From Glycera tridactyla (taxonomy: Eukaryota): 64,000 nt of DNA. Every line of letters begins with the position of its first letter. The stretch's first letter is position 1. Location of the stretch: the NCBI GenBank assembly GCA_965644265.1, contig OZ286477.1:29450001-29514000 (forward strand), given 5' to 3'. Below, piece after piece: positions 1 through 33,790 of the stretch. A model generated the notes under the pieces. It was not told the DNA's origin and made no database searches. It saw only the letters and a list, made by a program, of their open reading frames with translations. The position numbers and the translations under genes are program-made.

Positions 1-1570
1 GGCAGCATGGCTATCATGTTAGTGTGAATATATTGCTGAATTCCCGTGGTTTGTGACTTTACTGGTGTGTCAGCAGACTAACTCTAAACCTGAGAAATTC
101 AGTCTAGGAACTAGTCAAGTAGATATTTCATCGATTTTTTATCAGCATACTCTTGATGGTACCACTTCACTGTTTTTTGTGTTACAGAGGATTGAATCTC
201 TTCGATACAGTGTGAAGATCAGATCGTTTATCTGGTCAAGTAGATCTCCTTCAAAGTCTTCTTGAAAATATATCCTCGAGGCAGCAAGCTCCGGTTGTGA
301 ATGTTTGCTCTCACTCATCCTCAAGAGGTAAGACATCAGTGAGTTCCTTTGATTCCTCCTTCCAACGATAGTAAAAACAACCTCAGGCACGCTGCCTGAC
401 ACATTTTTCAAACAAATCATGCTATATTCGCAGCCATTTCTTTCTTAAATTGGAGTAGCTTACATACACATTTCCTCCAGAATGTTCTCAATTTGAGGAT
501 GATATTTTGTGATGAATTCTCTCATGCAGCACGAATGACTTTCATCAGAGATGGCTGTGCCAAAGGAGATACCTCATCAAAGATAGCTGCATCGACGTTG
601 GTAGAAATCCGGCAGCATCAAGCCGGTCATATTGAGGCAGCAGTCAAGTCAGTATTTCTCATACTGGCTCACAAGCGGTTGATGGTAAGGTATAAGATTC
701 ACAGTCACTTGCTAATGAAAGGAATATATTTTCATACGTTTCAAAATAGCAGTTAGATGTCGAAGATGTATGATCGATGTCTTCCTATCATTCAATGGTA
801 ACGTACAGAACACGAACTGTCTTTTTGAAAGTGATGGCTTGATTGAACAGAATAGTGAGTGTCAAACATATTCGGCTAGATGGTTCAGCAGGGTGGGGTG
901 AAGTTCTGGAAATGAAAGCTCACATATATTTCGCAAAACAGGAATGACCATAAACCCTACCAAAAGGGTGAATCCATGCCCCACCCAATCCTATCGGCAT
1001 AAGGAACAAGGAGTTATTTCTGCCCATACTCCAACTGCTAGGTCTCCAACAGATGATGAAATCAAAATCAGACTTACAGCGTGTCATTTAAAGTGCAGCA
1101 GGCAGGTGAAGAGTTGAGTTGGTGACAAGCTAATGTTGCTGAGGATGGGTTGATGATTCCTGAGGAATGGGCAAGTCTGTTTTGTGAAAGAATTTACAAC
1201 ATATCCCTAACAACAGCTGTGACATTTCGAAACACCCAAGTGAAGGATGTGTGAGCGATAATTCCATACTCCCTCTAGATCTTTGGTAAAATGTGGATTA
1301 GGAGTTGAAGCTCGATCATGTTTATATACTGGTACCAATGCAAATAGAATCAACATGCCTATACTGTTTGTGCACGCCTGTGTGCCTGTTAGTATGTGTG
1401 CATACATCATGCCTACCATGATTGCTGATAATTGCATGTGGTTTGATACATGAGCCAGCAAAGATAATTGATCACCTACTGCAAAGACGGATCATACCTC
1501 ACACATCCCAGCCTAGTGAGGTGTCACATTCACATTGAGGAGAAGTGGTAGACCCTCAACCTGATTGATT
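1..1570 (-). pseudogene. L: Viral L polymerase-like pseudogene, copy 1, N-terminal part (continues off the window to the left)
   Basis: Homologous to 9800-10530 and 19357-20195. Contains ORF fragments 142-420 and 1207-1461. Many stops; the putative start runs into the N gap. Confidence 0.55.
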
Positions 1571-1710
1571 GTCCTCTTCNNNNNNNNNNNNNNNNNNNNN
1601 NNNNNNNNNNNNNNNNNNNNNNNNNNNNNNNNNNNNNNNNNNNNNNNNNNNNNNNNNNNNNNNNNNNNNNNNNNNNNNNNNNNNNNNNNNNNNNNNNNNN
1701 NNNNNNNNNN

Positions 1711-2130
1711 NCAGAAACACAGACAGACAGAGAAAGAAGTTAGGGAGTGGGGGAGAGAGGTCAATAGTTGGCCTTCGGATAGATGGATGGATGGATGACT
1801 GGATGGATTGCTAGATGGATGAATGAATGGACGGTTGGATGGATTGATGGATGGATGAATCGGAGGATGGATGGATGGATAGATGTATGGATGGATGGAT
1901 TGATGAATGGATGGATAGATGGATTGATGAATGAAGTGATAGTGAATAGACAGAGAGTGATACACACTAGGAGGATCAGGCGGACTACCATAATCATATG
2001 GAAAATGGAAAATGGAAATGTTGAGGTTTTAGGTCCACTTTTTGCGGATAGACAGAGAGACAGGCAGACAAACTGACAGACACACAAACACAGATGTTGA
2101 AGAAGAGTGGTTGAAAGGTAGGGTATCACA
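1711..2130. repeat. (GGAT)n/(GACA)n microsatellite-rich host-like spacer with a SINE tail
   Basis: Simple repeats plus ggaaatgttgaggttttaggtccacttt (SINE 3' end, ~2015-2045). Homologous spacers at ~10530-11040 and ~20200-20600. Confidence 0.75.
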
Positions 2131-2139
2131 TAATCGACT

Positions 2140-5100
2140 CTACATAGAAATGTCTGTTTTGTGCAAAGTACAGATCCTACCGATCCATGAAGATCTGGGA
2201 GCCCTGCTTTGAATAATTGACAATGCTACACAGTTGATAAGCAGCATGACAGCACTTGCCAGGCTCCCACCACTACTCCAATATCTGCTTAAGTGGGGTA
2301 TAAATGTGTGAAGGTACAACAATACGAGGACATCAAGTCGTATATACTGCTTTCATTGCGTTCCTACATAGTTTGTGGTCCCTTTTTCGCTCTCAATAAT
2401 ACATGACAATCACAGTTATGTGATCGCAATGGAACTAACAGAATGGCTTTTTTTTCATAATATAGCAAGAGAGACTGCATTCTAACCTTAGCCCAATCCG
2501 GCCTTCGATGTCGCTATGGGATGGACATATCTACCATTAATTATGATGCTTAGTTATTGGATATAGTCAGACCTGTGCGAGAGACTGTGTCATCCAATGA
2601 TCACTCACCTACAAAAGTCATTCTAAGCAGTAACCAGGATAATACTGCTGTAGAAAGGTCAATCTGCTACAGAGGCCCATTCTGGTGTGCCTAAGGATGG
2701 TCCTTGGACACAGTTTCAACTGTAGTTTCGTTGAATATAAGCATGAACAGTTTGTGGCATATTATACCTGAGATACAGAGGAATGGGTACAATCATCGGG
2801 AGGTTATGTTTGAGGACAAATGATGTATTTGAGGATCTGCTTCAGATCACTGAGAAATACACAAATTTAGACAATGATAACTGCACCCAGTCTGAAATTG
2901 AAGTTGACATCCAGTCATCATGTTGCTTCAATAAATCAATGAATATAATCGATACAAGCTATTGGCTGTTCAAAACTTTCCCTGTCAGTTACTGGAGATA
3001 CTGTTGTTATTACCTGATCAAACTTTCCTCATCTATCCGTCCTTGTATGTACTATTATTTGTTTCACCATGCCATGTTATATTGTATGGCTCATCTGTTT
3101 TGTTTCACGTTGACTCAAAGAGGAACTCCCCTCAGAGAATATCAATAATCTTTTCTGACTTCAAACTTGAAACCTTCGAATGGTATTTCATATCATCTTG
3201 ACGTGATGGAGATAATGAAATATGACAACTGACCTCATCCTTGATAGAGGTGAGGCAAACTTTACCCACCTGAAAGTAAATACACATTTCGAAATATTAG
3301 CTTGTCGAGATATCGTTGAAAGCTCCGATATATATCGTCCTCGAATACCATAATAGATGATGTCATGCATGGCTTGTTCAAATGCGGAAGAGCAAGATTT
3401 CACAGGGGGACACACAGGTTTCAAATAAGGAATCTTCTCTTCATGATTTGACGATTGATCACTATCACAATGCTGGTAAATATATGCATTTTCTCTTTTA
3501 CATTACATGTTCACATTTTTCAAAATACCAATGCAAGATTGGTCGAAATGTTCATATGATATCCACCTTTGGGTGTAGTATTCACTGTGTATCTCATGTA
3601 TTACTCGGGGTGAGGTATATATCTTGGGTTGTAGGTGGGAGTAAATATTGTTGTTCATATAATATCCACCTTGGGTTGTAATATTGATTGTGTTTTTCAA
3701 TTATTACTTAGGGTAAGGTATATATTTTGGGTTGTAGGTGGGAGTAAATAATGTTGTTCATATAATATTCACTTTGGGGTGTAGTATCAATTGAATTTTT
3801 CATGTATAACTCAGGGTGAGGTATACATCTTTGGTTGTAGGTGGAAGTAAATATTGTTGTTTGCCAGTGAGGTAACATTGTAAGTGGTCAAGATTGCATG
3901 ACTATCTATATGCAATTGGGTGATAAAATGAACGATAGTGACCACAACCCTGCGGTGTATACACATGAAGCTCTTGGGAATAACACAACATGTTCGAGGC
4001 ACCTGTAAACCATCGAATATTTCATATCCATTTAAACACGATCCTCAATGGAACCAGGTCTTTGTCTGATGCACGACCTTATTCACTTGGAGGCAATATT
4101 GATGTATTAAATCGGGGTGTCCTTGCAAATATTCTCTTTTTAGCATTGCATATGTGCATCTAATGCTTGGCAGGCGAGTACCATACTCCAACAATTCGAA
4201 ACTTCACCTGCTTTCAGAAGAAGAATGGGGACGACCTTGCCTGAAAACACTCAAGATGCGACAGATCTATACATAAATTGGAGTTATTTAATGATTCATT
4301 TAAATTATCGATTTCCTTTCAGCTAAGCACATTGTGTGTATGTGTAAATCTTGTGCCTTGTTCAAGGTCACTTGTCACAACTGCTGTGTCATATAGATTC
4401 GAGCAAAATAATGGATACAGAGGCTTGTTTCCACACTCATATCTTCATATCTGAAAAGTTCTATCAGGGAGGAGGGAGCAAGTGATATGGTATACGAGAA
4501 TGTTAGCACAATCCACGGCCATCCTCCAGATGTGATATACTGATTCATTCCTGGTGGATGATTAGATGATGCCAACTACCTGCATATAAATTTTACATGG
4601 CAATACCTCTCAGATTAATCCCCTTGATAGTTCTGGATGATGAAATTTGAGAGAAGCAGCAGATGGATTTGACACCAGGAAGAAGTGCAATCATGATTAT
4701 AGTTTGGAGGTGAAGTCCTGTCTGGTAGCGAGCAGTCAACCTTTTTTGTCTATCTCCCAACAATTCTGGATCCTTTCCTCAATGATGTGAAAAGCTGTTC
4801 TGAATAGAACGGTATTGAATGTACCTAATCTACTTACTATCCTGTGTTTGGATATACGTCGAAATCATCATCATTACTAGCATTATCATCAGGATGTCGG
4901 AGAGAGTAACATTGTAGACACAGCAAACGTTTCGATTATATAAGTCTGGACAAAGCTAGATCTCAACTTCGAGTGACAGCCTCAATTTGAACAAGCTGTT
5001 GTTGAGTAAAGATTCCTGTTGAGGAAAATGAAGGTGATGATGGAGGCGCTGATGATAGTGGCAATGCTGATTATGATAATGAATGAGATCTTTTATGTGC

Positions 5101-5250
5101 GATGGCCACCCGTGATGTATTTGGCTGTAGTGCAATGTTACACTGGTACACATGTCATCAGCAGAAGCCACACAATGGCCTGCACAACGACAAATGCTAC
5201 TAATCAAACACAGTGGTGGCCTGGTGTAGCATCAGCCAGTGTGTTGAGTG
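2140..5250 (-). pseudogene. Non-L degraded coding region of the unit, copy 1 (glycoprotein-like X1 ~5200-2940, X2 remnant ~2900-2140)
   Basis: Minus-strand hydrophobic run ISFIIIISIATIISASIITFIFLN at ~5020-5095, Cys-rich fragments downstream, and hydrophobic [19 protein letters not shown] in ORF 2140-2322. Product identity and strand are uncertain. Confidence 0.35.
3550..3862. repeat. 103-bp unit triplicated inside the viral-like unit
   Basis: atatccacc/atattcac starts at 3559, 3662 and 3765. Single copy at the homologous 23150-23260. Confidence 0.85.
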
Positions 5251-5259
5251 AGCCATGAC

Positions 5260-8200
5260 CCAGCTGATAAAACCACATAGTGAAGTCAGTATGCAGACCC
5301 TTTACTAATCCACCATTCTTCTTATATTCGATTCAGTATTGTCCCATGAGTTGGATGTGACATTTGCTTGACTGCATTCAATGTCTAAGAAGCTGCTCCG
5401 AAAGATACCTGTGATTCTGTGTACATAGAATCATGGTTTATTCTTGTGTTATGATTGTGGTCAACTATGTGGTAGCGGTTCGAACAGCATCATTTGAAGT
5501 TTCTGCTCGGGCCCTCAAATGTCAACAATTACGTGATGATGTGTATATGATGCCTTCTTTGTGTTGCAATCAAAACTATGAAGTGAATTGACCTGTCATA
5601 TTGTCCACAGTCTGGGGAAGATATAATTCACTGCATACAGGCCAGCTGTCTCTACACTTGTCTTGTTATCATCCATCCCATCTCATCAGATTTGCCTAAT
5701 CTGGTTGGTGGAATCACACAAAATGACGTCATAATTTCTGGAAGGCATAATTTATTGAAATGTGTCTTGTTATCCAATGTTTGGTTGGTTCTAGGTCAAC
5801 CTCATATCTGTGCCATGTGAGCTATATTCATGGAAGGAATCATTCAAGACTCCTGCTTCTGGATGTCTGATAGAGAGTGAGAGGATGAGATTCATGGATC
5901 TTGTTATCAGATCTGATAGATCGTTCATTGATGGTCTATACCCTCACCCTATCATGCACCATGCAGCGAATCATATTTGGTCACAAATGATTCAGAGAGG
6001 CGGATACTTCATCACTAACAGCAGCACGCCTGATGAATTTTGCCTGTTGGATTTCTGCAAATCATCCCCAATTCTGACTGACTGATAAATCCATCATGAT
6101 AATTGACATCGTTGGTTGGGGATGAGAAACCAGTCATTCGGCATTAAAGCCACCATCAAGATGGCTGGGGAGGAATAGAAAGGAGTGACAGTAGCTATGG
6201 TGATAATAATAGGAAGCTTAGACACATTACTGCAATTACATCGATTTGATGTATTATAGGGATAATCAGGAGAGCAATCATATGATTTGCATAATCTCCA
6301 ATTATTAGGATTTTGATAACGCATTGTGTTCATTCCAATAATTGTAGTTGGTATAATAGTCTGATATGCCTTATATTGGTTTATCGGTTTTGTGTTGTGT
6401 GTGAATGAAATATCACCCACTCACACTTGGTTAACTTTCTGGCCCTAAATCAACTTTGTAATCTGCCTGCATTGGATATCCGTACTGTCATGATGGTGCA
6501 AGTCTAATTGTTAATCTCAACTATGAATTTTCTGCGTAAATTGCCGATGTTGAACCTGTGAACATGAAATGGCTCTTTTCGAGCCTAATACTAGTTCACT
6601 TATCTGAATCCAATGAATAACTGTAACCTTCGCCCTGTGAGTTGTATTCATAGTTCCAGTTTAATGATCTGTTCTGAATGTATTACAACTGTTGAAGGGA
6701 GATAGATGTACGGTACGACACCTTCACGGGCAGTTTCTGTCAATGGAGCGAGGAACCTCTATGCCAGCCTCATGCTCCATAATTTCAATTTCGAGAACAA
6801 TTGATACAGACGCTCATGGGGTTACATTTTACTTGTGCTGCGTGCTGCGTGACTTGATGCAATTAAGATAATGAGGCAAAAGTAGACATTGGTTCGAACT
6901 GGCGTGATCCAATCACAGAGTAGAGCTCTTATCATGGCTGCATATACAATCCCATGTGATTGGGAGATATGGGGAACTGAAATGGAGGCGTTCAGTCAAG
7001 TCAAGAGACACACTAGCTTTTTCCAATCTAGTGCCAAGTCATGCATCGTATTTGTGATGAGTGTACAAGATGAAGGTTTCATAATGATAAACTATACTCG
7101 AATTGATGAGCAAAGATAGAAAAATCATTGAAAAACATCAAACTTCATGCAGTCTCAATACAGAAGTAACATATGCTGTCAGTGAATATGTTGGCTCCAT
7201 CACAAGTATTGTGATCAAAATCGAAATAAAAGCCCTACTGTGATGTGACTATATCCCAGGGACAGGTAGCGAGTAATTTTTTCTGATTTTTCCAAGCATG
7301 GGCAAATTCTTTTTGAACCTTCGACACTACAGCACTCAAATCACATAGAAGAGTGTGAGAAGTTGTATCGTTGGATCATCAAGACTCTGAAAGCATGAAC
7401 TTTCTGAATCTCCATTGCGAATAGTATATTTATGAATCACAGCAAGAAATACATGATGGATGAGTGGGTTATGAGATCTGTGAATAAGCTTATGTGCATA
7501 CTTCAGGCTCCATTCATAAGGGTTCGGGAAGAAAAACAAACCTTTTGATGCGAGCATATGAGTCTATGGTGGATGTGTGAGCTGTGTTGGAATGTTTCAT
7601 TTTGTAGGATGCATGATTGAGTTTGATCTTGGCAGAAAATTGATCAGTCAGGCTTAACACTTTCACCTCCCATGTCCATTGCCTTGGCGTCTCAAAAGAG
7701 CCCAGGTGGCCCTTGTACAGCATCAAACAACCAACCAGACATCATGTGTTGTTTGTCTGCTTTCACCTTGCTCGTGATTGAGAGCGGTTTTTCTGGATAA
7801 TCTCACACACAATTATAGGGGCCTTTCAATGTAGTCGTGCTGGTGCTCAAGACATTGAACGACCAGGCAAGCAAATCTATCATTCAATCCAATCGCATAT
7901 AGTTGATATGGATGGGAACTGTGATTGATAGATGAGAACAAAAACCATGTGTAGCAATTGGACGCAATTGTTGTTCTTTTTTGGCCAAATGTGCATTTGT
8001 CTCTGTACTCAATGATGCACGAAGATCTCGGGAATGAGAAATTGGTGGAGTGACATATCGCTGACAGGAACCCTTTTATAATACATGTGCATACGGCGTT
8101 TTTGTAATCTATGTCTAATTAAGACAAGCTCTTCTTTGGATTAGGCCTTGTTTCATGGTGAGTTGTGATGCCTTTTCTTTTCTCAAATCACTACCTTATA

Positions 8201-10530
8201 GACATGCTGACGGAGATAAAGAAACTGACAAGACATACAGCCAGTCTGGTGGGAAAAGGAATGTAACAGTCTTCTGTGTTTGCTTTCTTATTGTGATTGT
8301 GATCATCCTTCTTTCCACCCAAAAGCAGGCGACTGTCCTGGGAATTATCAAATAGTGAAGAGGGTCCTCCATGGAGAAGCATACAGATAAGGGGAGAGGA
8401 AGAGGGGAGGAGGGGAGTAAGATGAAGCAGAGAAAAGGAGGTACAATCAGTCAAATACAATGTAATGAGAAGAGGTGGGTGTGTCATATCATATTAATAC
8501 AATCTCACTTCAATATGATGGATACCCTTTGTCAGTGACTGTCTAATATGCAATGTGAGGGTAGCCTTTTCCGTGTCAGTAGCTATGCCAGTTGGTGTTG
8601 ATCATACAAGCAGACCAAGTATATGGTACACCGATACCTGACATTCCAATGCTACAAATAACTAATAAGTGTGAAAAAAAAGTGATCTGTCCACACTCAC
8701 GGAGATAGATACTTATCAGGATATGCCAATTAGCATTTAAATGATGTAAACCTTCCAGAGATGTGGCTCTATTCACAATTGGTAAAGATTGACAACTAAT
8801 CGAGAAAGATGAGTGGCATTAGTTGGAGGAAAATGGTTGATTCATTATGAATCCTTTTTTGTTGTCACAAGCTGTTGCCTCGCTAGACTTGTGCCATCAT
8901 GAACAGAAACCAATATTAGTAGCCATTTACTGGTCTTATTGGAAAGAACCCCACTACAAATCTCATAATTTGCCACACAAGAGAAGTTGGATTTCTTTTT
9001 CATTTTTCATCAGATATATCACCATTGCCATCCGCGGATGGATGTGAATTGAGAGATAATTAAAAGATGGCTGAAAACAAATCAATATTTTGTATTCAAG
9101 CAGCCATATTCACCGAGGCCTTGAGACAGCAAGGGGCATATAAAAACCTTCTTCACCTTAATGCATGAAGAAAACAGTGCATGCTGGGATCAGGGTTAGG
9201 GATTTGAATATTCCAGTGCAAAAATTTCACTCCTGTGAAGGATAGATGTAAATCAATTCTCGAATGAATGTCTTGAAATCCTGATTTATATGCTGAACAC
9301 ATTGGAAAATGTATCAGGGAATTCTCGAATACCTCAGTGAATGTATCCACACATTCCTTTCCGTTTTTTCGCATGGTTGATTTGATATCTTTGATCTCTC
9401 CTTGTCATCTAACAACTTGCTATCTTGGAAGTCATCTATAATGAATGATGCTGTGTGACGCTATTACATTTGCAGAGTCATGCTGGGCAGTTTTTATAAA
9501 TGATATATATGGTGGATATCGTTAATGCTAGACTCGTGTTGCAGGTGATTTCTTAGTCATGTGCTGAATAAGTACATACATGACCTCAAAGACGCATAGA
9601 GTCAGTACATGGCAAAGTCCCTCTTCCAGTAGGGACATTGAACTCAATCCGTTGGATAATCTGTTCGTTTTTTCACAGTAAATCTCCAACATTGCAAGGG
9701 GTAGATAATGTCATGGCTACAGTCATTTGGAACATTCCAGGCACAATTATCTTTTGCCATTTTTATTCTAATGGTAACTGTTTCAGCCAAAATCACGAGG
9801 CAGCATGGCTGTCAAGCCTATGATTTTGTCACTGTATGAATACATATTGCTAAATTCCCATGGTCTGTGACTGTACTGGTGTGTCAGCAGAATAACTCTG
9901 AACCTGAGACACTCAGTTTAGGAATCATTGAAATGATTTTTTTCATCTATTTATTATCAGTCACTCATGATGAAAAGGCCTCCATGATTTTTTTGTGGTG
10001 CAGAGGATGTATTCGTTCCCATACAAGGAAAGCAATGGATCGCATGTCTGGCCATTTAGATCTTCTTGAAAATATATCCTCGAGGCATCAAGCTTCGGCT
10101 GTGAATGTTTACTCTCAAACTTCCCCAAGAGGTAAGACATTAGTGAGTTGCTTTGATTCATCCTTTTCTCGATGATATAAACAAACTCAAACTCGCTGCA
10201 CTACACATTCTTCAGAGAAATCATGCTGTATTCGCAGCCCCATCTATTTAAAATTTGCTCAGTTCACATCCCCATTTTCTCCAGAATGTTCCCAAACTGA
10301 CGATGATGTTTTGAGGAGAGGATTCCTCATGCAGCATGAAGGAGCTTCATCAAAGATAAAGATACCTCATAAAAGATAGCTGCATATGCGATAATCAACG
10401 TCGGTAAAAATGGGATGGTTCATTGTTTTTTTGTCCCGGCAGCACCTGAGAGGTTATATTTAGACAGCTGACAAGTCAGTATTTCTCATAAAAATGGGAG
10501 ATGGAAAGGTATAAAATTCACAGCCACTTG
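5260..10530 (-). pseudogene. L: Viral L polymerase-like pseudogene, copy 2 (most complete: RdRp, cap region, methyltransferase)
   Basis: Co-linear motifs on the minus strand: ILNRWGC (~10245, GHP-like); KRDFAMY..SLR (~9610, premotif-A GRxFxxM-like); FTGVKFLHWNIQ (~9205-9240, motif A DxxKWN-like); DGNGDISD..KRNPT (~9000-9035, motif B-like); FMMAQ (~8890, motif C position, GDN not recoverable); CQSLPIVNRAT (~8780); GMSGIGVP (~8630); HQFLIPEIF (~8020); SLKYAHKLIHR (~7490, CSxxLAxxLR-like); MIG*GYRP, HPEAGVLNDSF and NYDVILCDS (5710-5960, MTase-like). Total span ~6 kb including the N-terminal part seen in other copies. Confidence 0.7.
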
Positions 10531-10626
10531 CTAATTAAAGAAAGGGAGTGGGAGTAGGAGAGAGAGAGAGGTCAATAATTGGCCTTCAGATAAATTGATG
10601 GATAGATGAATGGACAAATGGATGGA

Positions 10627-10811
10627 AAAAAACGGAAATGTTGATGTTTTAGGTCCACTTTCTGCACTTGAGTAGGCTAAATCAGACCACCTGCCAAGTA
10701 GGAGCGAAGATGAAGGGTGAAACATTCCTGCATGGTAGGACTGGGGATTGAACCCCAGACCCATTGCACGCCGGCCCAGCATGCTACCACTGAGCCACCA
10801 AGGCAGGCGGC
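10627..10811 (-). mobile_element. tRNA-derived SINE
   Basis: Reverse complement carries A-box TGGCTCAGTGG and B-box GGTTCAATCCC, followed by a non-tRNA body. Near-identical to 22322-22517. Confidence 0.8.
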
Positions 10812-11039
10812 AAATGGATAGGCGGATGACAAATGGATGGATGGATGAGTGATGGATGGATTGATGAAGGGATAGTGAATAGACAGAAAGTGATACACAC
10901 TAGTAGGATGAGGCAGACACACAGGCAGACATATAATCATATGGATAGACAGAGGGACCGACAGGCAAACTGACTAACTCAAAGACACACAAACACATGG
11001 GTTGAAGAAGAGTGGTGGAAAGGTAAGGTCTCACTCATT

Positions 11040-20195: not shown

Positions 20196-20213
20196 ATATT
20201 TGAGAGAGAGAGG

Positions 20214-20254
<41 letters not shown>

Positions 20255-20599
20255 AGGTAGATGGGGGAGAGACAGACAGATGTATAAACAGATAGGGAGA
20301 CAGACTAACAGACAGACAGAGAAAAAGGTTAGAGACTGGGGGAGAGAGGTCAATAGTTGGCCTTCGGATAGATGGATGGATGGGTGACCGGATGGATTGC
20401 TCGATGGATGAATGAATGGATAGATAGATGGATTGATGGATGGAGTGATAGTAAATAGACACAGACACACTAGTAGAATCAGGCAGACAACCAGGCGGAC
20501 ATATAATCATACAGATAGACAGAGAGACAGGCAGACAAACTGACAGACACAGAGACACAAACACAGATGTTGAAGAAGAGTGGTGGAATGGTGGGGTAT

Positions 20600-23500
20600 C
20601 ACTCGCTCGAATCTACATAGAAATGTCTCTTTTGTGAGATGTGCAGATCCTACCGATCCATATCATGGTGCAGATCCAAGTTCGAAGATCAGGGAGCCTT
20701 GCTTTAAATTCCCACTTGGTAAGCAGAATGACAGCACTTGACAGGCTCCTAACACTAGTCCAATATCACAATAGCAGATATCTGCCTAAGTGGGATGTCG
20801 TTATGGAATGGACATATTTACTATCTTTAATGATGCTTACTAATTGGATACAGTCAAACCTGTGTGGATGTATGTCTCACCCAATGGTCACTCACCTATG
20901 AAAATCATCCTGAGCAGTAACTAGGATAATATCTTCTAAACTACGAAACTGCTACAGAAGCCGATTTTGATGTGCCTAAGAATGATCTTTGGATACAGTT
21001 TCAACTGTAGTTCCATTGAATATAAGTCTGAACAGTTCGAGGCATATTGCACCTGAGATACAGAGAAATTAAAAACAATGATTGGGGAGGTTATGGCCGA
21101 GGACAAATGATGTATTCGACGAATTGTCTGTCAAAGTTTATTGGCTGCAGATAACTGGGAAATACAAATATTCGAACAATGAGAACCACACCCTGTTTGA
21201 AATTATAGAAACTTTCAGAAGGAAGAATTGTGGCTCAAATGTACAGATTGAAAAGCGAGATCAAGGTAGATAATTCCCCATGATAATTTTAGCCATTAAC
21301 CCAACACAATAAATTAACCCAATCTTCAATCGTGGAAAGAGAGGCTTCTGAATATTGTGTCTCGTAGCATTAAAGCATCCCACAAATAGCGTCATGTAAA
21401 AGAATCTGGTTTTAACAGACCAAACATCTTTTTTTTTCTGATTGGATGTCTGGATCGGCATAACTCTGAGTATTTCATGGAAGAAAGACAGTCCAAAATC
21501 ATAACCTCGCATTTCTCATGAGATTTTCCGTAACATCTCATTGTGGAGAGATGTGAATAGATATATCATACAATGAATACAAGAAGTGAACTAGATATCG
21601 ATACAGCCTCTTCGAGGCCAAAGTCTGAAAGAATGGGCAGTGAATGGTGTGACTGTAGGTAGGAGCTATTCTATATTCGGTTTTGCAAAACGTTGAATTA
21701 CCATGTTATTCGTATGTCCATCATGTACACGACTTGACATATCTTCTATCATTGAAATTGATTGCGAGCATATGTCTATACTATCACTCATCCATCTATA
21801 GTGTGCAGAATAATCCTTATTATGAATGGCTGGATGTGGAAATAATTTGCAGGAAAGGTGTGCTGTAATCGACATGGCTGAAACTAAGATTCAAACATAC
21901 TCGAAGCTGATCGAACAGTTCAGCGTATCCAACAGAGAAAAAAACCATCAGAGTTGTCTTCAGATTTAATCTTGTCTACTTGACCTCTGAACTGTCAAAT
22001 CATAACCACAGTTCTTCCCCACAAAATATAAACTGTTAAAACTAGAATGAATCAGAACAAAATGTTCAGATGGACATCGGGAAATGATCTGTACTCCATG
22101 TAAAAATGTGTTTTTCTATCAATTTGATCATTTGCTGTTGGTCACGTTAGAAGTCAAAACTGAGACAAATTAATTCATAAGATTCATGAATATCTCTACA
22201 ATTTACTGACAGCAGTAGTCGTGAACTTGTTTGCACTGAAGTATATCACTTGTTCCTCCGAAATATATGACCCTTTTGGTGTGACCAGATCAATGAAGCC
22301 AGCATTATCTTTTAGCTGAGAGGCCTGCCTGCCTTGGTGGCTCAGTGGTAGCATGCTGGGCCGGCGTGCAATTGGTCTGGGGTTCAATACCCGGTCCTAC
22401 CATGCAGGAATGTTTCACCCTTCATCATCGCTCCTCCTCGGCAGGTGGTCTGATTTAGCCTACTCAAGTGCAGAAAGTGGACCTAAAACCTTAACATTTC
22501 ATTTCAATTTTTTTTTTCAGCTGAATCAAACAGTAGACCAGAAATCTCTAAGCATTCCTTGCGAACAACGACCATCACATCCGGTCATCATGTTGCTCCA
22601 CAACTTAATACAAGCTATTGGCTGTTCCCCTATCAGCTGATGAATATACTGTGTTTATTGACTGATCAGATTTTTCTCACCTACCTGTCCTTGTATGTTT
22701 GTTTTTCCATGTCATGTTATATTGAATTGAATTGCTTATTTGTTTCGTTTCACTAAGACTCGAATTGTGGAGGTAGGGGTGATTTTTCTAGGAACTCCCG
22801 TCGGAGAGTATAAATATATATTTCAAACTTTGAACTTGAAACCTACGATGTGTGTCACATATTTTCTCGAAGTGATGAAGATAATGAAATATGGCAACTG
22901 ACCTCAACCTTGGTAGAGGTAAGGCAGATTTCACCCACCTTTCAGAATATAAGCTTGCCGAGAAATCGCTGGGAGCTCAGACATATCTCTTCCTCAAATC
23001 AATTAAGATGAGATCATGCATGGCAAAATGAGTAAAGAATCTTCTTTTCATGATTTAATGATTGATCATAATCACAATGCTGATAAATATATGCATTTTC
23101 TCCTCCACATTACATATTACAAAAAATCAATGCAAGCTCGGTCAAAATTTTCATATAGTATTGACCTTGGGGAGTAGTGATGACTGTGTCTTTCATGTAA
23201 CACTCAGGGTGAGGTATATATCTCCGATTGTAGGTGGGTGTGAATATTTGTGTTGGCCAACGAGGTAACATTGAAGGTGGTCTAGATTGCATGACCATCT
23301 ATATGCAATTGGGTAATAAAATGAATGATAGTGGCCACAAGCCTGCTGTGTATACACATAAAAGCTCTCGAGAATATCACATCATAATCGGGGGCACCTG
23401 TAAACCAACGAATGATACATATCCATTCGAACACGATCCTGAAGGAACCAGGTCAATGTCTAATGCACAATCTTATTCACTTGGAAGCAATATTAATATA

Positions 23501-24590
23501 TTGAACATGGGGTGTCTTTGCAAATATCTTTTTGCAAATATGCTCTTTTTTGCTTCACATTGCACATGTGCAGCTAATGCACGTACCATAATCAACCATT
23601 CGAAACTGTACATGCTTTTAGAGGCGAAACAGGGACGACCTTGCCTGAGAACAATGTTATTGCCTCTGGGTCCATCAACCTATAATGCGAAAGATTTATA
23701 ACATATCTTGAAGTTATTTAGTGACTCTTTCGGATGATTGATTCCATTTCAGCCAAGCCCAGTGTGTGTATGTTGCGAAGAGCGAAGTTTGTGCCTTGTT
23801 ATGGTCACTTGTTACAGTGACAACAAGACCCTGAGAATCTTTCAGTGTCAACTAAATTCGAGTAAGATAAGAATACAGGGGCTTGTTTCTACACTCAGAA
23901 CTTCATATCTGAGAAGTTCTATCACAAAGGAGAAAGCAAGTGATGTGGTATACGAAAATGCATTCCAGGGCCATTCCTGGTGGATGATTGGATTATGCCG
24001 ATTACCTGGTGATAATCCATTTTGCATATGAATATTACATGAGAATACCTCTCAGGTTAATCCTCTTGATATTTCTGGATGAGTGAATTTGTGAGAAGCC
24101 AGCTTCTGGATTTGGCACCAGGAAAAAGTTATTTGAATGAGTAAAATTCTTTCATCCTCAGATTATGGAGGTGAAGTGCCGATCTGTGCAGTTCTTCAGT
24201 CCTGTGTGGTAGCGATCAAACAACCTATTTCATTTTGATCTCCAAACAGTCCTGGATCCTTTCCTCAATGATGTAAAAAGCTGTTTTGCAGAGAACGGTA
24301 TTGTATGTACCTTACCAACTCACTATCCTGTGTTTGGATACACTTCGAAATTATCACCATTACTATCATCATCATCAGGATGTTTGAGAGAGTAAGAATC
24401 GTAGACACAGCAACAGTATTGATTATATGAGTCTTGACAAAGTTAGGTCTCAACTTCGAGTGACAGCCCTAATTTGAACGAGTTATTGTTAAGGAAAATC
24501 AAGGCGATGATGGAGGTGCTGATGAGGGTGGCAATGCTGATGATGATAGAAGATGAGATATTTTATGTGCGAAGGCCACCCGTGAATAAT
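20600..24590 (-). pseudogene. Non-L degraded coding region, copy 3 (longest): X1 ~24590-22560, X2 ~22100-20600
   Basis: X1: N-terminal hydrophobic ISSSIIISIATLISTSIIALIFLN; Cys-rich fragments (KACTVSNG, DICKDTPCS, SGSCSNG, QACGHY..WSCNLDHLQC); hydrophobic+basic MHIFISIVIMINH.IMKRR near 23060. X2: hydrophobic FILVLTVYILWG near 22030. Confidence 0.4.
22322..22517 (+). mobile_element. tRNA-derived SINE (same family as 10627-10811)
   Basis: ggtggctcagtggtagc (A-box), ggggttcaataccc (B-box), shared body and T-rich tail. Confidence 0.8.
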
Positions 24591-25212
24591 TAGGCTGTGA
24601 CCATGTAGTGTCATGATACTTATTCACGTATTGATGTTACTTGTTGATGTTTATTCATACCCATAGTTGCTTATACATACTTATATGTAACTCAGTCAAA
24701 AGATTTCATTGCATGTGAGTGTAAGGTACCATCCATTAATCAATGCTGATCGATTGAACATGCACCAGTCCTCTCTCAGGACGATACTTCCCACCGTTAG
24801 ATAAGTAGATCCGTACTATCCCACCATTGGTGTCATAAGTAGAGCTACTCTGTGGAGTGACCACGTAGGTATACTGTATCAACTCTTTGATGTCTAGATG
24901 TTGGCATTCTCTTTTTAGAAATCACTCAGAAATACTTGGAAGTAGATCTATCGAAGATGGATGTAATACCATCCAGATAAAATCGAGCCAACTGTTCCTG
25001 TGAAAGTTTCAGTAAAATGTGGTGCACCTTTCTACTACCTCACACTTTGTCTGTCTTTCTGTCTATCTGTTTGTCAATCTGTCAATCTGCCTGCCTGTCT
25101 GTCTGTCTATCTGTCTATCTGTGACAGAAGAAGCCTTGGTTGACAAATGTAACCCCGCTGTGTCTGTGATATTAACTCAGACAATGAGATCACCTGCATA
25201 GATCAGCATGCA

Positions 25213-28200
25213 TTTGGGCAGTTTCTGATGATAAAACAAGGAACATCTATGGTGGCCTCATTCTCTCCATCTCCAATTTCCAAAACAATTGATACACACG
25301 CTCATGGGGTACATTATACTCGTGCTGCGTGACTTGATGCAATTAAGATAATGAGGTGAAAGTAGACATCGATTCGAACTGGCGTGATCCAATCATAGAG
25401 TGGAGCCCTTATCATGGCTGTATACACAATCCAGTGTGATAGGGAGATATGGCGAACTGATATGAAGTCGTCCAGTCAAGTCAAGGGACACACTAGCCTT
25501 TCCCAGTCAAGTGCGATGTCATGCATCGTGTTTGTGATAAGCGTACAACATGAAGGTTCCATCGTAATGGACTTTACTCAAATTGATGAGCAAACATTGA
25601 AAAAAAACACTGTAGATCATGGAACTCGATGCAGTATCAAACACAAAAGCAACATCTGCTGTCAGTGAATATGTTGGCTCCCTCACAAGTAATGTGACCA
25701 CAATCGAAATAAATGACTGTCATGGTCAAGATACATCTTACTAGCCCTACTGCAATGTAACTATATCCTAGTTACAAGTAGCAAGTGATTTTTTCAAATT
25801 ATGTGCAAGATGATATTTCATTTTAACCTTCAAGCCCACAGCTCAAAGTCTCTCAAATCACATAGAAGGGTGAGAATTGTTGTATCGATGAATCATCAAG
25901 AATGATCCTGAAAGCATGATTTTTTTTTAAATTACATTGCCACCATCTCGGATAGTATATTCATGAATTACAGCAAAGACTATATGATGGATGAGTTGGA
26001 TTATGGGTTTGTAGTTATCTTCGGGTAGTGTATATCAAATGACATATGTTGTGCGATTGCCAAGGACATGGATTAGGATCGAATGGCAAATGTCGGAAAG
26101 AACCAGCTTCCATCATCTTGATTTGAACTCGGTGAGAGACACATGTGCCATGTGTAATGTCACATAACAGTAAACAATTTGGGTTCACTACGAGTAGATG
26201 AGACGTGTCTTATAAGTTCATAATAGCTCATCTGATCATCATATATTATACATATGTACACATTGGGATAGTTGCTACTCTGTGGTGGGGCTATATTCAA
26301 TTTGCGGACAGCATGATGTCAACGGTTGCTAAGCTACATAACCTTCTTCAATTCTCGTGATCGTCTTTTGTCACCACGTAAGGCTGGATCCAACACTGAT
26401 ATTGACATGCTATCACACACAACAAGCATTGATGGTGTCTCGCAATACCATATATCTAGCATATATTGACCTTTTATAACAACCATAAACTCGCTAGCTA
26501 TGCCATGCACCAAGCATTTATATTGATTTGCTATACCACGCATCTAGCATTGGGAGTAACATAATGAACTGCATTGATATTGTCTAGCTATGCAATGCAT
26601 TTAGAATTGATATCAAATTGCTATGCCATGCATCTAACATCAACATTGACTTGTTATCACATGCTCTCACAAGAGGGAGATGATTGCAGGCTGTACGCTA
26701 GCACGTGACCTCAGTAGCTCCTTCTTGATGAGTTCAATATCATGTCACACATCAGATAAATGAGTTCGTGTATCCAGTCACAGGATCTTAAATTGCCATA
26801 TTGGAAATGAACATGCAAGACCTATTGATAACAGTTTCGGCAATATTGCCTCACCTCCCCTGGAATCCTCGTTGTATCCTGCACCTACATCTGAATCTAC
26901 ATCTGCATTTACCATACTGTAAGTCACTATTCTGGTCATGGGAGTATCTGTTTCTCCATATACTTGCATCTTATACCTAGCTTGGTCCCCATATCTTATT
27001 TCACAATTTGAATTTGCCATATCGTCTCAGACACATTCATTTTTTGATCAACAAGCATTCGATAGTTGTGACTACACATATGTGGATCTGTAAGTCAACG
27101 AGCTTGGGATTACATGGAAAACACCATTATTCATTCATAGATTCATTTAACGACACATACTGGGTCAGTTTTCGTGTGCTAAAAATTGTTCATATTAGTG
27201 CAGTCCTATGGGTTCAGATGTGTGTATGTGTCGATTGTGTTTGGGTGTATCCAATTTGCGGAATGGATGATTTCAGGTTCATCATGATCTTGGCCGATAA
27301 TTGAAATTCAAGTTCTTCAAGCCTGAGTTCCATTCATTGTTTGAAAGACATACATTAGATAGTTGCAGGTACATACAGCTGTATCTGTGAATAAGCTTAT
27401 ATGCATACTCCAGGCTACAATCATGAGGATTCGGGAAGCAGAACAAACTTACGATTTTTTCTCTGGTGCGCGCATATGAGTCTATGATGGATGTGTGAGC
27501 TGTGTTGGAATGTTTCATTTTGCAGGATGCATAATTGAGTTTGACCCATTCCTCCTATCCATGCCAATTGCATTGGCGTCTCAAAGAGCCCAGGTGGTCC
27601 TTGTACAGCATTGTACAACCAACTAGACATCATGTATTGTTTGTCTACCTCCACTTTGCTCTTGATGAAGAGAGGTGTTTTCTGAATAATCCCACATACG
27701 ATTAGAGGGTGCGTTTCAATGTGGTCGCGTTGATGCTCAGGAGACGTTGAACGACCAGGTTAAACAAATCTATCATTCAATCCCATCGCATATAGTTGGT
27801 ATGGATCAAAACTATGATTGATAGATAAGAACAAAAACGATGTATAACAATTAGACGCAATTGTTCTTCTTTTCTGGCTCAATGTGCATTTGTCTCTGTA
27901 CTCAATAATGCACGAAGATCTCGGAGATGAGAAATTGGCGGGAGTGACATATCACTGGTAGGAGCCCTTTCATAATACATGTGTATACGGCGTTAGTGTA
28001 ATTTATGTCTAATTAAGACAAGCTCTGCTCTGGATTAGGCCTTGTTTCATGGTGAGTTCTGATGCTTTTTCTTTTCACGAATCACAATCTCATGAACATG
28101 CTTGCGGAGAGAGAGACTGACAAGAAATAGGGACAGTCTGGTGGGGAAAGGGAATGTAGATTATTGTAATAGGAGGGAAAGATGAAGCAAACCAAGATAG

Positions 28201-29760
28201 AAAGAAATGGAGATAAATAATCATTTTTTCACCACTCCCTTGATGTAACTGTCTACTGTGTTTGCTTTCTTATTGTGATTATAATCATCCTTCCTCCCCC
28301 CCCCCCCACTCAAAAATAGGCAACCGTCTTGGGAATTATCAAATAGTGAAGAGGGTCCTCCATGGAAAGCATGCAGATAAGGGGGGGGGGGGTGAAGAGG
28401 AAGAGGTGAGTGAGAGAAAGCAGAGAAGTGGTGCAATCAGTGAAATACAATTTAGTGAGAAACTGCATGCGTGATATCGTATTGATATCATCTCAATTCA
28501 ATATGATGAGTACTTTAGATACCCTCCGTCAGTGTCTGTCTATGCAATTTGGGTGAAGCCTTCTCCATGTCAGTAGCTATGTCAGTTGGTGCTGGTTATA
28601 CAAGCAAACCTAGCATGTGGCACACCAATACCCAACATTCCTCCGCTAGAATAACTAATAAGTCTAAAGAAGAGCGCCCACGTGCGCCGGGAGATCTCTA
28701 AGAGAGAGAGGGATAGAGACAAGCCCTCCTTCAGAAATCTGGGGCAGCGGTCCTCCCGATGTGAGTCATGAGCGAGCTACACGTAGATTCGTCTTGTACC
28801 GTTATGGCCATATTTTATCACAAACGGAAGTATTCACCAAAAGTTTGTCAAATCGCCGTCATCCATGCTCTCCGCCTTTGCCCGAGTACTGATCTCTGAT
28901 TGGCTGGTTTTACACAAGCTAGCTACAACTCCATTCATGAATCGGCGCAGAGATCCATGAAACCTGGTGATAAGGTACGAAGAAGAAGCACTACTTTACT
29001 CCCCTACAAACAATCATAGCAACCGAAACACGCACTCACTATTTGTGCGCAGCTATACAGATCCCAGCTGCCGACGTTTGTATGCTTCAGCAATTGGCCA
29101 CAAAAACAAGTATAGAAGGAATTTCGTATTACGTAATCGCTACATTTCCTCAAATTGTCGTTCATCAGATCAATAGATCATCTTAAAATCGTGTTAGATT
29201 AAATCATTTGCATCTCTTACACAGCTCCGATCATGATTCTTTTGATGACATCGGCCTCGAGAGCCAGAATCGGCGAAGTTAATATGCCAGTCGAGCAGAG
29301 AGGTGGTAGCATAAAGATCTCCATCCGCAGGCAGAAATCTCAAAAATGGAGTGATCTCTGCACTCATGGAGGTTGGTGCTCGTCAGAACATGTACATTAG
29401 CATTTGTTGATGAGAAGCTTTCTTCGAAATTGGTAAAGATTGGCATCTAATCGAGAAGGATGAGTGGCATTAGCTGGAGAGAAATTGTCGAGGCATGATA
29501 ATACATTTCTCAATCGTCACAGGATGTTGCCTAGCAACACCTCCTCGGGCTAGATTTGTGCCATCATGATGAAAAACCAACATGAGTAGCTATTCAATGG
29601 TGTTAGTGAAACGAACCCTACTATAAATCTCATGGTGCGCCATACAAGAGCAGTCGGATTACCTTTTTGATTTCCCATCAAATATATCACCATTGCCATC
29701 GTTTGCATGCAAATTGAGAGCTAATTGAAAGATGGCAGCCAACAAATCACTATTTCGTAT
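25213..29760 (-). pseudogene. L: Viral L-like pseudogene, copy 4, central part, with insertions at ~26005-27380, ~28100-28470 and ~28665-29340
   Basis: Homologous to 6725-9100. Motifs GNGDIFDG/QKGNPT (~29660-29700), FIMMAQ (~29560), CQSLPISKKAS (~29420), SSGGMLGIGVPHARF (~28605-28650, LGG..RF-like), CSLEYAYKLIHRY (~27385-27425). Confidence 0.65.
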
Positions 29761-30142
29761 TCAGACAGCCTTTATCGAAGAGGACATAAGACAGAGGATA
29801 GTATTCACGATTTCCTCCTGAATTCAGACAGCCTTCATCGAAGAGGACATAAGACAGAGGATGGTATTCACGATTTCCTCCTGAATTCAGACAGCCTTCA
29901 TCGAAGAGGACATAAGACAGAGGATGCTATTCACGATTTCCTCCTGAATTCAGACAGCCTTTATCGAAGAGGACATAAGACAGAGGATGGTATTCACGAT
30001 TTCCCCCTGAATTCAGACAGCCTGTATCAAAGAGGACATAAGACAGAGGATGGTATTCACGATTTTTCCTCTGAATTCAGACAGCCTTTATCGAAGAGGA
30101 CATATAAGACAGAGGATGGTTTTCACGATTTCCTCCTGAATT
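29759..30142. repeat. 63-bp minisatellite (~6 copies) derived from the L-like sequence
   Basis: Unit attcagacagccttcatcgaagaggacataagacagaggatggtattcacgatttcctcctga. The first unit aligns with single-copy 9093-9135. Confidence 0.85.
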
Positions 30143-30649
30143 GACAAAAAATGTTGAGAACGCAGGGTGCATATCGATGAACAGATGGGTGAATTGATTT
30201 GTTCAATATGAATGTCCCTTAGAATCACTCACTAATTACTCAATGAATTGATACCTCTTATTACAAATGTGCACTCTATGTCTTTCGAAATCTTATGGAC
30301 CTAAAAAGATTGACATTGGAATTTTAATTTCAATTTCGATATGATAGAATAATGCGATGGAGTTTAATGATGGACAGATGATGTGTAGACATGTAACTAT
30401 TGAGGGAAATGAAATTTCTTGGATCGGAGTTCATGAAATTCAGTGAATTCATACCCACTATTCAAATATTTCAACGTGTAAATCCTCATATTGTGAAAGA
30501 TGGTTGTGAATCAACTCTCCACTGTCTGTCGAAAAATGTCTCTTCGAATAATTTTCTAAAATGACAGAAATTTATTGAGTACCTTATTAAATCCAGCAGA
30601 GTGTGAATTCAGAATACGAAACTTAGGTAATACAATGATGGGCGTCTTC

Positions 30650-30650
<1 letters not shown>

Positions 30651-30702
<52 letters not shown>
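30651..30702. repeat. (GTA)n microsatellite
   Basis: Pure gta run. Confidence 0.95.
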
Positions 30703-30704: not shown

Positions 30705-30779
30705 GATTCGTAGTAACAGCATTAGCAGCTGCAGTACTTCATGTAGGACATTATAGTATTCCTTACTGTATATTCTATA

Positions 30780-31474
30780 CAACTTCAAGGGCAGCGGCCA
30801 AAAAGTCTAAATATGTTTATAATTCCAGCAGTCCACGTCGCCATTTCTCTCAGGATGTTCTCACATAGTGGATGGAGATTTGAGAAAAAGGTTCTGATGT
30901 GGCATGAAGGGTCTTGGTCAAAGATAGATGCGTCAAACAAGATACTTCAACGTAGATAGAATCTGTGATGGATAAAACCAGTCAAAATTCTGATGGTTGG
31001 CTCTTCTTGTGTCTGAGCAGCTCACTTTACCAAGACGTCCATCAAGTGAACTCAATCAGTATTCCTGATCCTGGCTCCTCAACGGATGACGAAAAGATAT
31101 GAAACTCATAGGCCTTTGCTAACGGAAAGAAATTTATTTTCACATGGTCCGAAATAGCAAGAGAATATCAAGAATGGGTGATGAATTCAGCCCTATAATC
31201 AGAGGGCAATGAACAGGACTTCAGAAGAGATGGATATTTGGCCAGGGCGTTCAGCAAGATGAGAGGATGTTCAAGAGATGAGACCTGACTCCTGATTCGC
31301 CAAAGTAAAAACAAATCAGCATCAACATTGGGAGCGTTCGTCGATTTGAAATCAATTCATATTATTTGGTGAATCCTGAAGCCAGTCATTGCCCATATGG
31401 GGAAGGGGCAAGCGTCCCAGCATTTTGTTGAAAGTAGACAAGATCACAATGTCCCTTTGACTATTAACAGATAT
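30780..31474 (-). pseudogene. L: Viral L-like pseudogene, copy 4, N-terminal part (most diverged copy)
   Basis: Minus reading DASIFDQDPSC...NILREMATWTAGIINIFRLFGRCP, similar to the IFRxFGHP context of Mononegavirales L. Aligns with 470-900 and 19365-19700. Ends at an N gap. Confidence 0.55.
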
Positions 31475-32079
31475 NNNNNNNNNNNNNNNNNNNNNNNNNN
31501 NNNNNNNNNNNNNNNNNNNNNNNNNNNNNNNNNNNNNNNNNNNNNNNNNNNNNNNNNNNNNNNNNNNNNNNNNNNNNNNNNNNNNNNNNNNNNNNNNNNN
31601 NNNNNNNNNNNNNNNNNNNNNNNNNNNNNNNNNNNNNNNNNNNNNNNNNNNNNNNNNNNNNNNNNNNNNNNNNNNNNNNNNNNNNNNNNNNNNNNNNNNN
31701 NNNNNNNNNNNNNNNNNNNNNNNNNNNNNNNNNNNNNNNNNNNNNNNNNNNNNNNNNNNNNNNNNNNNNNNNNNNNNNNNNNNNNNNNNNNNNNNNNNNN
31801 NNNNNNNNNNNATCACCAGCCACTGTCTGTGTCTGTGCAACCAATTCTGGGGACCTGACGTGAGTAGGCTATGAAAAGTGAATGTAAATGTTGTGTTTGA
31901 AGTCTGATATCCTTCAGTTTACAGCATCTCTTGGCTGGCCTGCTGGCGCTTGGCCCATTCTCGAGTGAGTATAAAACCACATGCATAGAATAAACTGCAG
32001 AGCTGAGCACTATATGTTCCCCATTACTCTCCATCCACGACAGGTTGAAGATAACTGGTGGAGTTGTGGTGTTCCACTC

Positions 32080-33790
32080 ACTCGTCTCTACATAGAAATG
32101 TCTCCTTAGTGAGAAGTGCAGATTCTATAGATGTATGTCATGGTGCAGTTTCAAGCTTGAGGAGTCAACCTTGTCTATGTGGACACCGATCTAACAGAAA
32201 AAACCAGCTCTCAACTGTGGTAAATGCTACATAGTTGAGAAGTGGAATGACAGTGGTTCTTACTAGTATTCCTATATCACAGAGATCTCTGTTCAAGTAG
32301 GGTATAAATGTGTGAAGGTACAACAATAAGGGTACGTCAAGCTGTAGATCCTGCTTTCATTGCAGTTCTTCATCGTTTGTGGACCCATTTCTGCTCTTGA
32401 TAATACATGACGATCACACTAATGTGATCGCAATGGGACTAACAAAATGGCCTCATCCATAACTTATCAGGGAAAGACTATAACCTGAACCCATCATGCC
32501 CTTTTGTGTCGTTGTGGACTGGGCATGTACATCATTGGTTACTATCTTGATATAGTCGAACATTGGGGGAGATCATCTTATCCAACAGCCACATACCTAC
32601 TGAAGTCATCCTAAGCATTAATCGGGATGATATCTTGTGAAGTATAAGGCTGATTTGGTGTGCCTTAAGGTTGTCTTTGGAGGCAGTCACATTTCAGTTT
32701 TGTTAAATCCAATTATGATCCGTTCACAGTATACTATTATAGATTGTTGTTGGCAGATCACCAAGAAATACACAAATTAGGGCAATGAAAGCTACACCTA
32801 GTCTGGAAGTAGAGAAACACAAAGAAATAATAAATGTTTTAGAAGCAAGGTCATGGTTGTGGGTTTGCCGGGAGAATTGTGGTCATTCCCACACCAAATT
32901 CAATCAACTCACTCTTCCGTCAACAGAAGAGGATGAATCGAATATTGTGTCGTGAATGGACCTAATGATAAAATATAATCGTATGCAGGAACTGGTCATT
33001 TCTCACATTGAATGGAATTGTACAACCAAAAACTCTCTAAATGCCCCTGATTTAATGTGAAGATTCACACTAACATGGACTGTCTCCCTTGAAGAGCCTT
33101 GCATATGGTGAAACAGAAAATGGCTTTGATGGACTTCCAGCAGAGACATAACTATTTCTTCATCGAGAACATTCGTCAGTGAGGTGTGATTCGGAANNNN
33201 NNNNNNNNNNNNNNNNNNNNNNNNNNNNNNNNNNNNNNNNNNNNNNNNNNNNNNNNNNNNNNNNNNNNNNNNNNNNNNNNNNNNNNNNNNNNNNNNNNNN
33301 NNNNNNNNNNNNNNNNNNNNNNNNNNNNNNNNNNNNNNNNNNNNNNNNAGCAAGTACCTCAGTCTATGAGTCAGCGGAGAATAGTTGTTTGACAATATGC
33401 CTTCCTCCTAAATTGACGTCAATCAGGGAGGATTGGCCCACGGGGCCAAATGAGTTTTTTTGTAATCATCAAGATGAGTTGCCTAGCAACAACTCCCGTG
33501 AGCAGGTCATATTAGTAGCTTCTTGATTGCTCACCATCTTTATCAACCATTCACTCCTCATATCCAAACATACCCAGTGGCAGACAGGATTGTTACTGGT
33601 TGAATGTACGAATCTGCATATTTCTGAGTATTTCACAGAAGAAGGGCGCTCAGAATTTTCTACAACTTCATTCCACAATTACCTAAATCAGAATTATCGT
33701 CTGCATTGAAGTAGGAAATATGTGAAATGCCAGTGGTATCATATAATAGAATAGTGTTGGTTCTTGGTTGGTTGTATGTTTTACATCTGG
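32080..33790 (-). pseudogene. Non-L degraded coding region, copy 4 (X2 equivalent only)
   Basis: 32085-32820 is homologous to 2140-2900 and 20600-21200; 33440-33790 is homologous to 11560-11860. Confidence 0.45.

Follow-up and report, generated by a model that had tools for sequence, protein, structure and literature searches.

A dead tandem array in the Glycera tridactyla genome that probably descends from a paramyxovirus-like RNA virus

We studied a 64,000-nucleotide stretch of the Glycera tridactyla genome (contig OZ286477.1, positions 29,450,001-29,514,000; the assembly is 2.04 Gb), which we will call the window. It holds most of a tandem array that no longer encodes a working protein. 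The array is made of a ~10-kb cassette that probably derives from a paramyxovirus-like virus: a probable nucleoprotein (N) gene, an unassigned spacer of ~2 kb, and a near-complete polymerase (L) gene, in the genome of an invertebrate. Taken separately, a mononegaviral origin for the L-like gene is very likely, and a paramyxovirus-like origin is likely.

Comparison of the window with itself revealed a unit that repeats directly every 9.3-11.1 kb across positions 1-33,660. With 160 kb of upstream and 40 kb of downstream sequence added to the comparison, the array extends ~7.9 kb upstream of the window, and a further partial copy lies ~50 kb upstream (contig positions 29,394,400-29,401,300). This distant copy belongs to a segmental duplication of 28 kb with a Kimura two-parameter (K2P) distance of 0.21. 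A preliminary description of this DNA, made from the sequence without database searches, had reported a ~10-kb unit repeated ~3.5 times in one orientation; the repeat is real, and the array is larger than was claimed.

Within the window, there are three cassettes of the same age class and two older, partial cassettes, all on the minus strand. Cassette A (100-9900, with approximate boundaries) is the most complete: it has the N-like gene, a shortened spacer, and the L-like gene, which is present from close to the start through to the end. Cassette B (9950-16050) has the L-like gene without its 5' end and lacks the N-like gene. At its break there is a long interspersed nuclear element (LINE) on the plus strand (16500-19350), with an endonuclease and a reverse transcriptase (RVT_1, E = 3e-10 and 4e-15). 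Cassette C (19350-30700) has the N-like tract (~28240-30330, with insertions), the full spacer, and an L-like gene with an internal deletion (start-like site at 26310, 3' part at 19350-22300). The older cassette D (30790-33660) retains only the 3' third of L (connector and methyltransferase) and contains two N-masked stretches. The other older cassette, U1, has the N-like gene, the spacer, and the 5' two thirds of L; it begins at 1-60 and continues for ~7.9 kb upstream of the window.

The copies are 67-85% identical to each other over aligned columns (73.6-84.5% to copy A), and their K2P distances are 0.17-0.44. Individual copies bear private insertions (the LINE at 16.5-19.3 kb, short interspersed nuclear elements or SINEs, and minisatellites), so an assembly artifact is very unlikely and the structure is biological. 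In a genome search, DNA probes from 2,900-5,400, 5,550-8,250, and 8,260-10,540 had long matches only at the array locus. We rejected a dispersed transposon family because these three probes found no copies elsewhere in the genome. Two smaller elements lie inside the array. A 174-bp SINE-like element (10635-10808 and 22327-22500; four local copies, in both orientations, with 93-95% identity) was inserted after the array duplications. An insertion in copy C (28954-29323) matches, in inverted orientation, a two-copy element ~70 kb downstream (74-76%).

The array was duplicated in rounds. The younger cassettes A (9900-100), B (16050-9950), and C (30700-19350) are separated by K2P distances of 0.17-0.25, and the older flanking pieces (D at 33660-30790, U1, and U2) by 0.28-0.44. 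The 3' part of L in cassette D is 0.33-0.44 from its three counterparts. The 3' part of L at 100-2903 falls in with the younger copies (0.20-0.25), and the N-like and L 5' stretches on its left are older (0.28-0.35). Because this L 3' part is closer to the younger cassettes (0.235-0.25) than its left neighbor is, we place the duplication boundary at the inferred junction between the end of L and the start of N. The duplicated unit runs from the start of N to the end of L, which agrees with the gene map and is independent of the motifs. We also considered whether the unit was circularly permuted and came from a circular genome, and rejected this, since the segment distances put the boundary at the L end. 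The array may be tens of millions of years old or more. A single integration with later local duplication, as first proposed, is likely right.

None of the copies is intact, and they share stop codons in all frames. For 15 minus-strand tracts, a score for the path with the fewest stops did not consistently favor an open frame (z between +0.39 and -2.49); two plus-strand tracts had z = -2.9 and -3.5, and the LINE, as a control, had z = -5.3. When we compared copy A to each of four other copies, the mismatches had no codon periodicity in any of the four pairs (p = 0.91-0.996). Period-3 power was 0.94-1.20 in five array copies; in two retroelements it was 1.80 and 3.13. The element had already decayed when it was duplicated, and it evolved neutrally from then on. 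Given the neutral divergence and the lack of a reading-frame signal, the array is dead; it encodes no working protein and is a relic without protein function. The shared stops in all frames and the lack of periodicity in the mismatches led us to reject a selected or domesticated array of endogenous viral elements (EVEs).

To describe the L-like gene, we read the copy alignments outward from one site, first against measles L and then against printed sequences. At this homologous site, the tail of capping motif A matches exactly in all four copies that cover it (the same pattern has a background of 0.2-0.65 per kb anywhere). In cassette A, RNA-dependent RNA polymerase (RdRp) motif F and the following helix would lie at 5700-5790 on the minus strand, broken by a frameshift; the match of 7 of 15 positions to a bornavirus L row, counted by eye, speaks for this assignment. 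The palm region would follow at 4750-5400, with a motif A-like site at 5385, a motif E-like tract (S-L-R-K-x-S-R) at 4788, and a degenerate motif C. A tract like the capping (polyribonucleotidyltransferase, PRNTase) domain lies at 3080-4020, with the motif A tail at 4017 and then sites like motifs B, D, and E; a 103-bp triplication (3549-3861) interrupts it. A methyltransferase-like tract lies at 2160-2570, with the first lysine, glycine-rich, D, and second K sites, and has stops at several key positions. We had predicted that the methyltransferase would be found beyond the 2905|12174 seam, and its K, glycine-rich, D, K, and E sites were then read there (2560-2160). The spacings are 65 (K to glycine-rich), 208, and 120 nucleotides, where 66, 279, and 108 would be expected; later insertions lie ahead of the E site.

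By eye, and with hand-picked landmarks, the RdRp, capping, and methyltransferase domains are collinear over ~6.5 kb. If we take the measles L positions of the landmarks from PMC12019284, seven hand-picked landmarks that span 787 residues give a slope of -2.99 nucleotides per residue of measles L (r = -0.996), with a largest residual of 116 nucleotides. This map (motif F at ~5790-5733, capping at ~4020-3080, and methyltransferase beyond the seam) is likely the better supported of the two that have been proposed.

The other map is that of the preliminary description, which placed the L motifs elsewhere. Its peptides do exist on the minus strand: KRDFAM (9625), KFLHWN (9227), MMAQ (8900), LPISKKAS (29436), GGMLG (28644), FLIPEIF (8041), SLKYAHKL (7509), and GHP (4122), along with the methyltransferase-like peptides G-x-GY (5952), VLNDSF (5850), and YDVILCD (5733). 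The order and meaning given to them were not confirmed, and several occur in no more than one or two copies. For example, of the three copies aligned at KFLHWN, copy A alone has this peptide, and two of four copies have DVILCD. GHP lies downstream of the supposed methyltransferase, or else ~3.5 kb before the next motif if it is taken from the neighboring copy. This placement is likely wrong: the supposed methyltransferase peptide YDVILCD is consistent with the helix that follows RdRp motif F, and the supposed RdRp tract (9900-8250) looks like nucleoprotein.

For family placement, we compared the copies by eye to the alignment in the supplement of PMC4705655, which does not include chuviruses or the newer invertebrate families. 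Copy B keeps one frame over ~400 codons (12177-13361), and its VIYGLQVP (~12995) matches seven of eight residues of the Nipah row around motif A. In that paper's table of 225 viruses, YGLE occurs 19 times, always in Paramyxoviridae. In copy C, DILES just after motif A matches the measles row at four of five positions, and is followed by an aromatic-F-x-P stretch and C-x-L-D. Between motifs D and E, copies A, B, and C have the pattern N-L-x-H, Q, S-R-Y-V, L-x-F-x-I, which is seen in the paramyxovirus rows of this alignment and is missing from its rhabdo-, pneumo-, filo-, borna-, and nyamivirus (Nyamanini) rows. By eye, the capping tract resembles the Paramyxoviridae rows, rather than those of rhabdo-, filo-, pneumo-, or bornaviruses.

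The fossil could instead be a mononegaviral L from another family (nyami-, xinmo-, lispi-, or chuvirus-like), or have the layout first described, in which case its paramyxovirus look would be due to chance and our familiarity with those sequences. Such families are to be expected in an invertebrate host, and echinoderm mononegaviruses are reported to cluster with Nyamiviridae. Also, the motif F tract matches the bornavirus L row well (7 of 15 positions at 5762-5733, in motif F and the next helix, counted by eye across one break), and part of the spacing in the first layout fits vesicular stomatitis virus (VSV). But among the rows of an alignment that lacks chuviruses and the newer invertebrate families, the capping tract fits the paramyxoviruses and not Nyamanini, Borna, or the rhabdo-, filo-, and pneumoviruses, and several peptides of the first layout are present in only one or two copies, so we consider this explanation unlikely. 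Jingchuvirales had been named as an option, and nothing pointed to them. Chuviruses would be marked by their type of glycoprotein, an L-G-N order, and HH in capping motif D; Pfam scans of the array matched no glycoprotein family, its motif D is degenerate, and the alignment has no chuvirus row. A chuvirus-style reading of the tract at 9600-8600 was considered early and rejected. The broader verdict of a Mononegavirales L likely holds, given the likeness of the capping tract, the spacing of the landmarks, and a methyltransferase in the predicted place.

On the other side of the spacer from L, cassette A has a nucleoprotein-like tract (8250-9850, minus strand). We recognized it by eye: several short stretches of 9850-8250 appear to resemble a paramyxovirus nucleoprotein. 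On balance we favor the assignment to N, by a modest degree. In cassette A, the spacer between this tract and L (7480-8250, minus strand) lacks ~1.4 kb that is present in copy C (26005-27383) and is partly common to both upstream copies; in the fullest copies, the N-like gene is ~2 kb from L. Inside the spacer there is a degenerate short-period repeat (26400-26900 and L015:8000-8700), which predates the duplications, as it is common to old and young copies.

In a 15-kb paramyxovirus, N and L are separated by ~6.6 kb, which hold P, M, F, and HN (PMC2577636). The array does not have the ~15-kb gene order given there (N-P/V-M-F-HN-L): its cassette is N-like, ~2 kb, and L, and we recognized no P, M, F, HN, or attachment gene in it. 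Because no M, F, or HN gene was recognized, the initial claim that the element is near genome-length is unsupported, unless the virus was compact. In that case, the cassette might be nearly the whole of a ~10-kb genome, with N, one small gene region, and L, and no envelope genes. The cassette does run from near the N-like start to just past the L-like end, and these are ~100 nucleotides apart at the junction; poly(A) runs do not exceed 7 in either of the two junction stretches examined; and the ~2-kb spacer is common to old and young copies. On the other hand, a typical paramyxovirus has all four of those genes between N and L (PMC2577636), the spacer had no family match in Pfam scans and consists in part of a degenerate short repeat, and the copies commonly show deletions of 1-4 kb. 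We think that a compact genome is improbable. More broadly, the cassette might represent an unsampled invertebrate branch of the paramyxoviruses that once entered the germ line of a non-chordate invertebrate, with a capping domain nearest to measles and Nipah and an N-to-L cassette that is possibly a near-whole compact genome without envelope genes. We offer this specific version tentatively; the more general idea of an unsampled virus lineage, which was raised at the outset, is likely right.

A number of results weigh against our reading, starting with the database searches. Our Pfam queries were frames with X at stops, plus natural open stretches, from both strands; each query was a single frame, and HMMER's filters drop weak matches. 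None of the 220 queries matched a mononegaviral family (including PF00946 and PF14318, the L profiles), and the N-like tract did not match PF00973 in Pfam or an L or N in PDB. The only row for a viral family in these scans was Baculo_E66, with E = 0.22, which is below the cut-off. In PDB, none of 10 queries matched L or N. Five of the PDB profiles and one word-based query were built from alignments that MAFFT had smeared, so these were weak tests; the query with a clean alignment of the best tract was a fair test, and it had no match either. There were no matches among 1.84 billion representatives, for a query with one frame of 5101-8598, which missed 3000-5100 and thereby most of the tract that we recognized later. 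Word-based searches with array tracts (0 of 3) and family-profile searches of the genome for L or N (0 of 3) were also negative. The preliminary description had said that the lack of a significant match to any negative-strand L would refute it; every search that we ran came back without such a match, although no homology search bridged frameshifts. Other approaches gave little. A scan of viral contigs gave 85 pattern matches, none of which was confirmed; the best scores from ESM Atlas look-ups (0.80 and 0.76) gave no lead; and the AlphaFold models were unusable (pLDDT of 33.4 and 27.1) and were not taken into fold searches.

The motifs themselves raise further doubts. No frame or codon signal is left in the array, and there is no score behind any of the motif matches, as the comparisons are visual. 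The motif definitions in PMC6636387 are no more frequent in the array than in control DNA, and on the minus strand, no copy has an exact match to the full PRNTase motif A or to motif B as defined there. Motif C is not securely placed: the intact catalytic motif was not found, as GDN is present only in copy C, where the spacing is a poor fit, and the other three aligned copies do not have it. The paramyxovirus N motif, F-x4-Y-x3-aromatic-S-aromatic-AMG (as defined in PMC2577636), is not intact at ~8640. The slope against measles L is partly circular, because the landmarks and the frames were chosen by eye with the expected spacing known. The first map also has spacings that fit VSV (109 codons from KFLHWN to MAQ, the same as from D605 to D714, and 983 vs. 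956 from MAQ to G-x-G), so fitting by eye can mislead. Also, the L start-like site is ~400 codons from GHP; the corresponding stretch of measles L, which we take to be ~345 codons, is shorter.

If the array is not viral, then it would be old duplicated DNA, either non-coding or transposon-derived, and the motif matches would have arisen by chance across three frames and several copies. This would account for the negative searches, the lack of an open-frame or period-3 signal, the composition that is near background (GC of 0.40), and published motif patterns that are no commoner than in controls; and the region duplicates host DNA anyway (the 28-kb duplication and another with a 15-kb period). 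But there are many matches of several residues in the correct order and with the correct spacing, the methyltransferase domain was found in its predicted place, and the duplication boundary coincides with the inferred gene boundary. We judge it to be a small possibility that the array is not viral.

If the array did come from a paramyxovirus-like virus, then a host retroelement would have reverse-transcribed the viral RNA, and a single insertion into the germ line would have followed (a route that is described in PMC11089739). The template would have carried N and L together, and the middle genes either were already lost from the viral genome or were lost in the host before the duplications. 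The insertion would have decayed first, and then multiplied by unequal crossing-over. The region seems to be prone to tandem duplication.

The host's gene content fits with an invertebrate. Genome-wide, there are 62 matches to innexin, with several clusters and intronless copies (an expanded family), and no connexin match over the cut-off (one weak connexin-like match, at C18:178003-178269, is below it). With many innexins and no connexin above the cut-off, the host is likely a non-chordate invertebrate and not a vertebrate.

Paramyxovirus EVEs are known from teleost fish (PMC11521997) and from fish, amphibians, and a shark (PMC11089739), with 19 per study, from screens of vertebrates only. 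These loci preserve single genes (PMC11089739). Like the array, they include L-like and N-like sequences, many of them divergent or degenerate. In contrast, the array has both in one tandem cassette, is in an invertebrate, and is too decayed to be detected by database searches. Compared to L from measles and Nipah viruses, the array has sites like motifs F, A, and E, capping motifs A to E, and the K-GxG-D-K-E sites in the same order and with the same spacing (PMC12019284, PMC4705655), as well as local residue matches in the capping domain (PMC4705655). Unlike those proteins, all of the copies have stops, frameshifts, deletions, and insertions, and the catalytic triplet, the HR pair, and GxxT are degenerate.

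Other RNA virus fossils share some of these features. The totivirus-like STORM array of Scheffersomyces yeasts is likewise tandem and goes back to a non-retroviral RNA virus that integrated once and was then duplicated, but it derives from a double-stranded RNA virus and is intact, expressed, and under selection, while our array decays neutrally (PMC13756089). The chuvirus-derived non-retroviral EVEs of horseshoe crabs are, similarly, old fossils of negative-strand viruses in a large invertebrate genome; they differ in that they were found by tblastn, were placed with chuviruses by their glycoprotein, and are mostly transcribed (PMC12282059). The word "tandem" does not occur in the main text of that paper. 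In the open-access literature, we found neither a paramyxovirus fossil from an invertebrate nor a tandem array of N and L.

Paramyxovirus fossils are rare and have been described as single genes. Those in the papers cited above are from vertebrates, so a multi-gene tandem fossil in an invertebrate would be unusual. Other mononegaviral families are thought to derive from invertebrate viruses. If our interpretation is correct, the array would widen the past host range of a family that is held to be vertebrate-specific, and would bear on whether paramyxoviruses, too, arose from invertebrate viruses. It would also mean that old fossils escape standard screens, as all of the searches with the array were blank. 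As a dead relic, the array itself suggests no host function.

The surroundings of the array contain other repeats and mobile elements. A DIRS-type retrotransposon with long open frames lies at 51176-57420 of the window on the plus strand (RVT_1, E = 1e-23, and a weak Dam match), and is flanked by a 193-bp inverted pair (50525-50717 and 57863-58053; 96%). A second retrotransposon with a tyrosine recombinase, also with open frames, spans L018:6978-10000 and L019:1-3391 on the minus strand; it has ~65% identity to the window's DIRS-type element and is in the opposite orientation. The tandem 28-kb segmental duplication (29,373,500-29,423,100) comprises a 20-kb unannotated block and one array piece (K2P of 0.21), and the duplication with a 15-kb period is near 29,300,000-29,320,000. 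Finally, there are dense minisatellites at 34304-47472 and 61963-62574 of the window, with units of 53, 41, 83, 69, 99, and 153 bp, some of which are 98% homogeneous.

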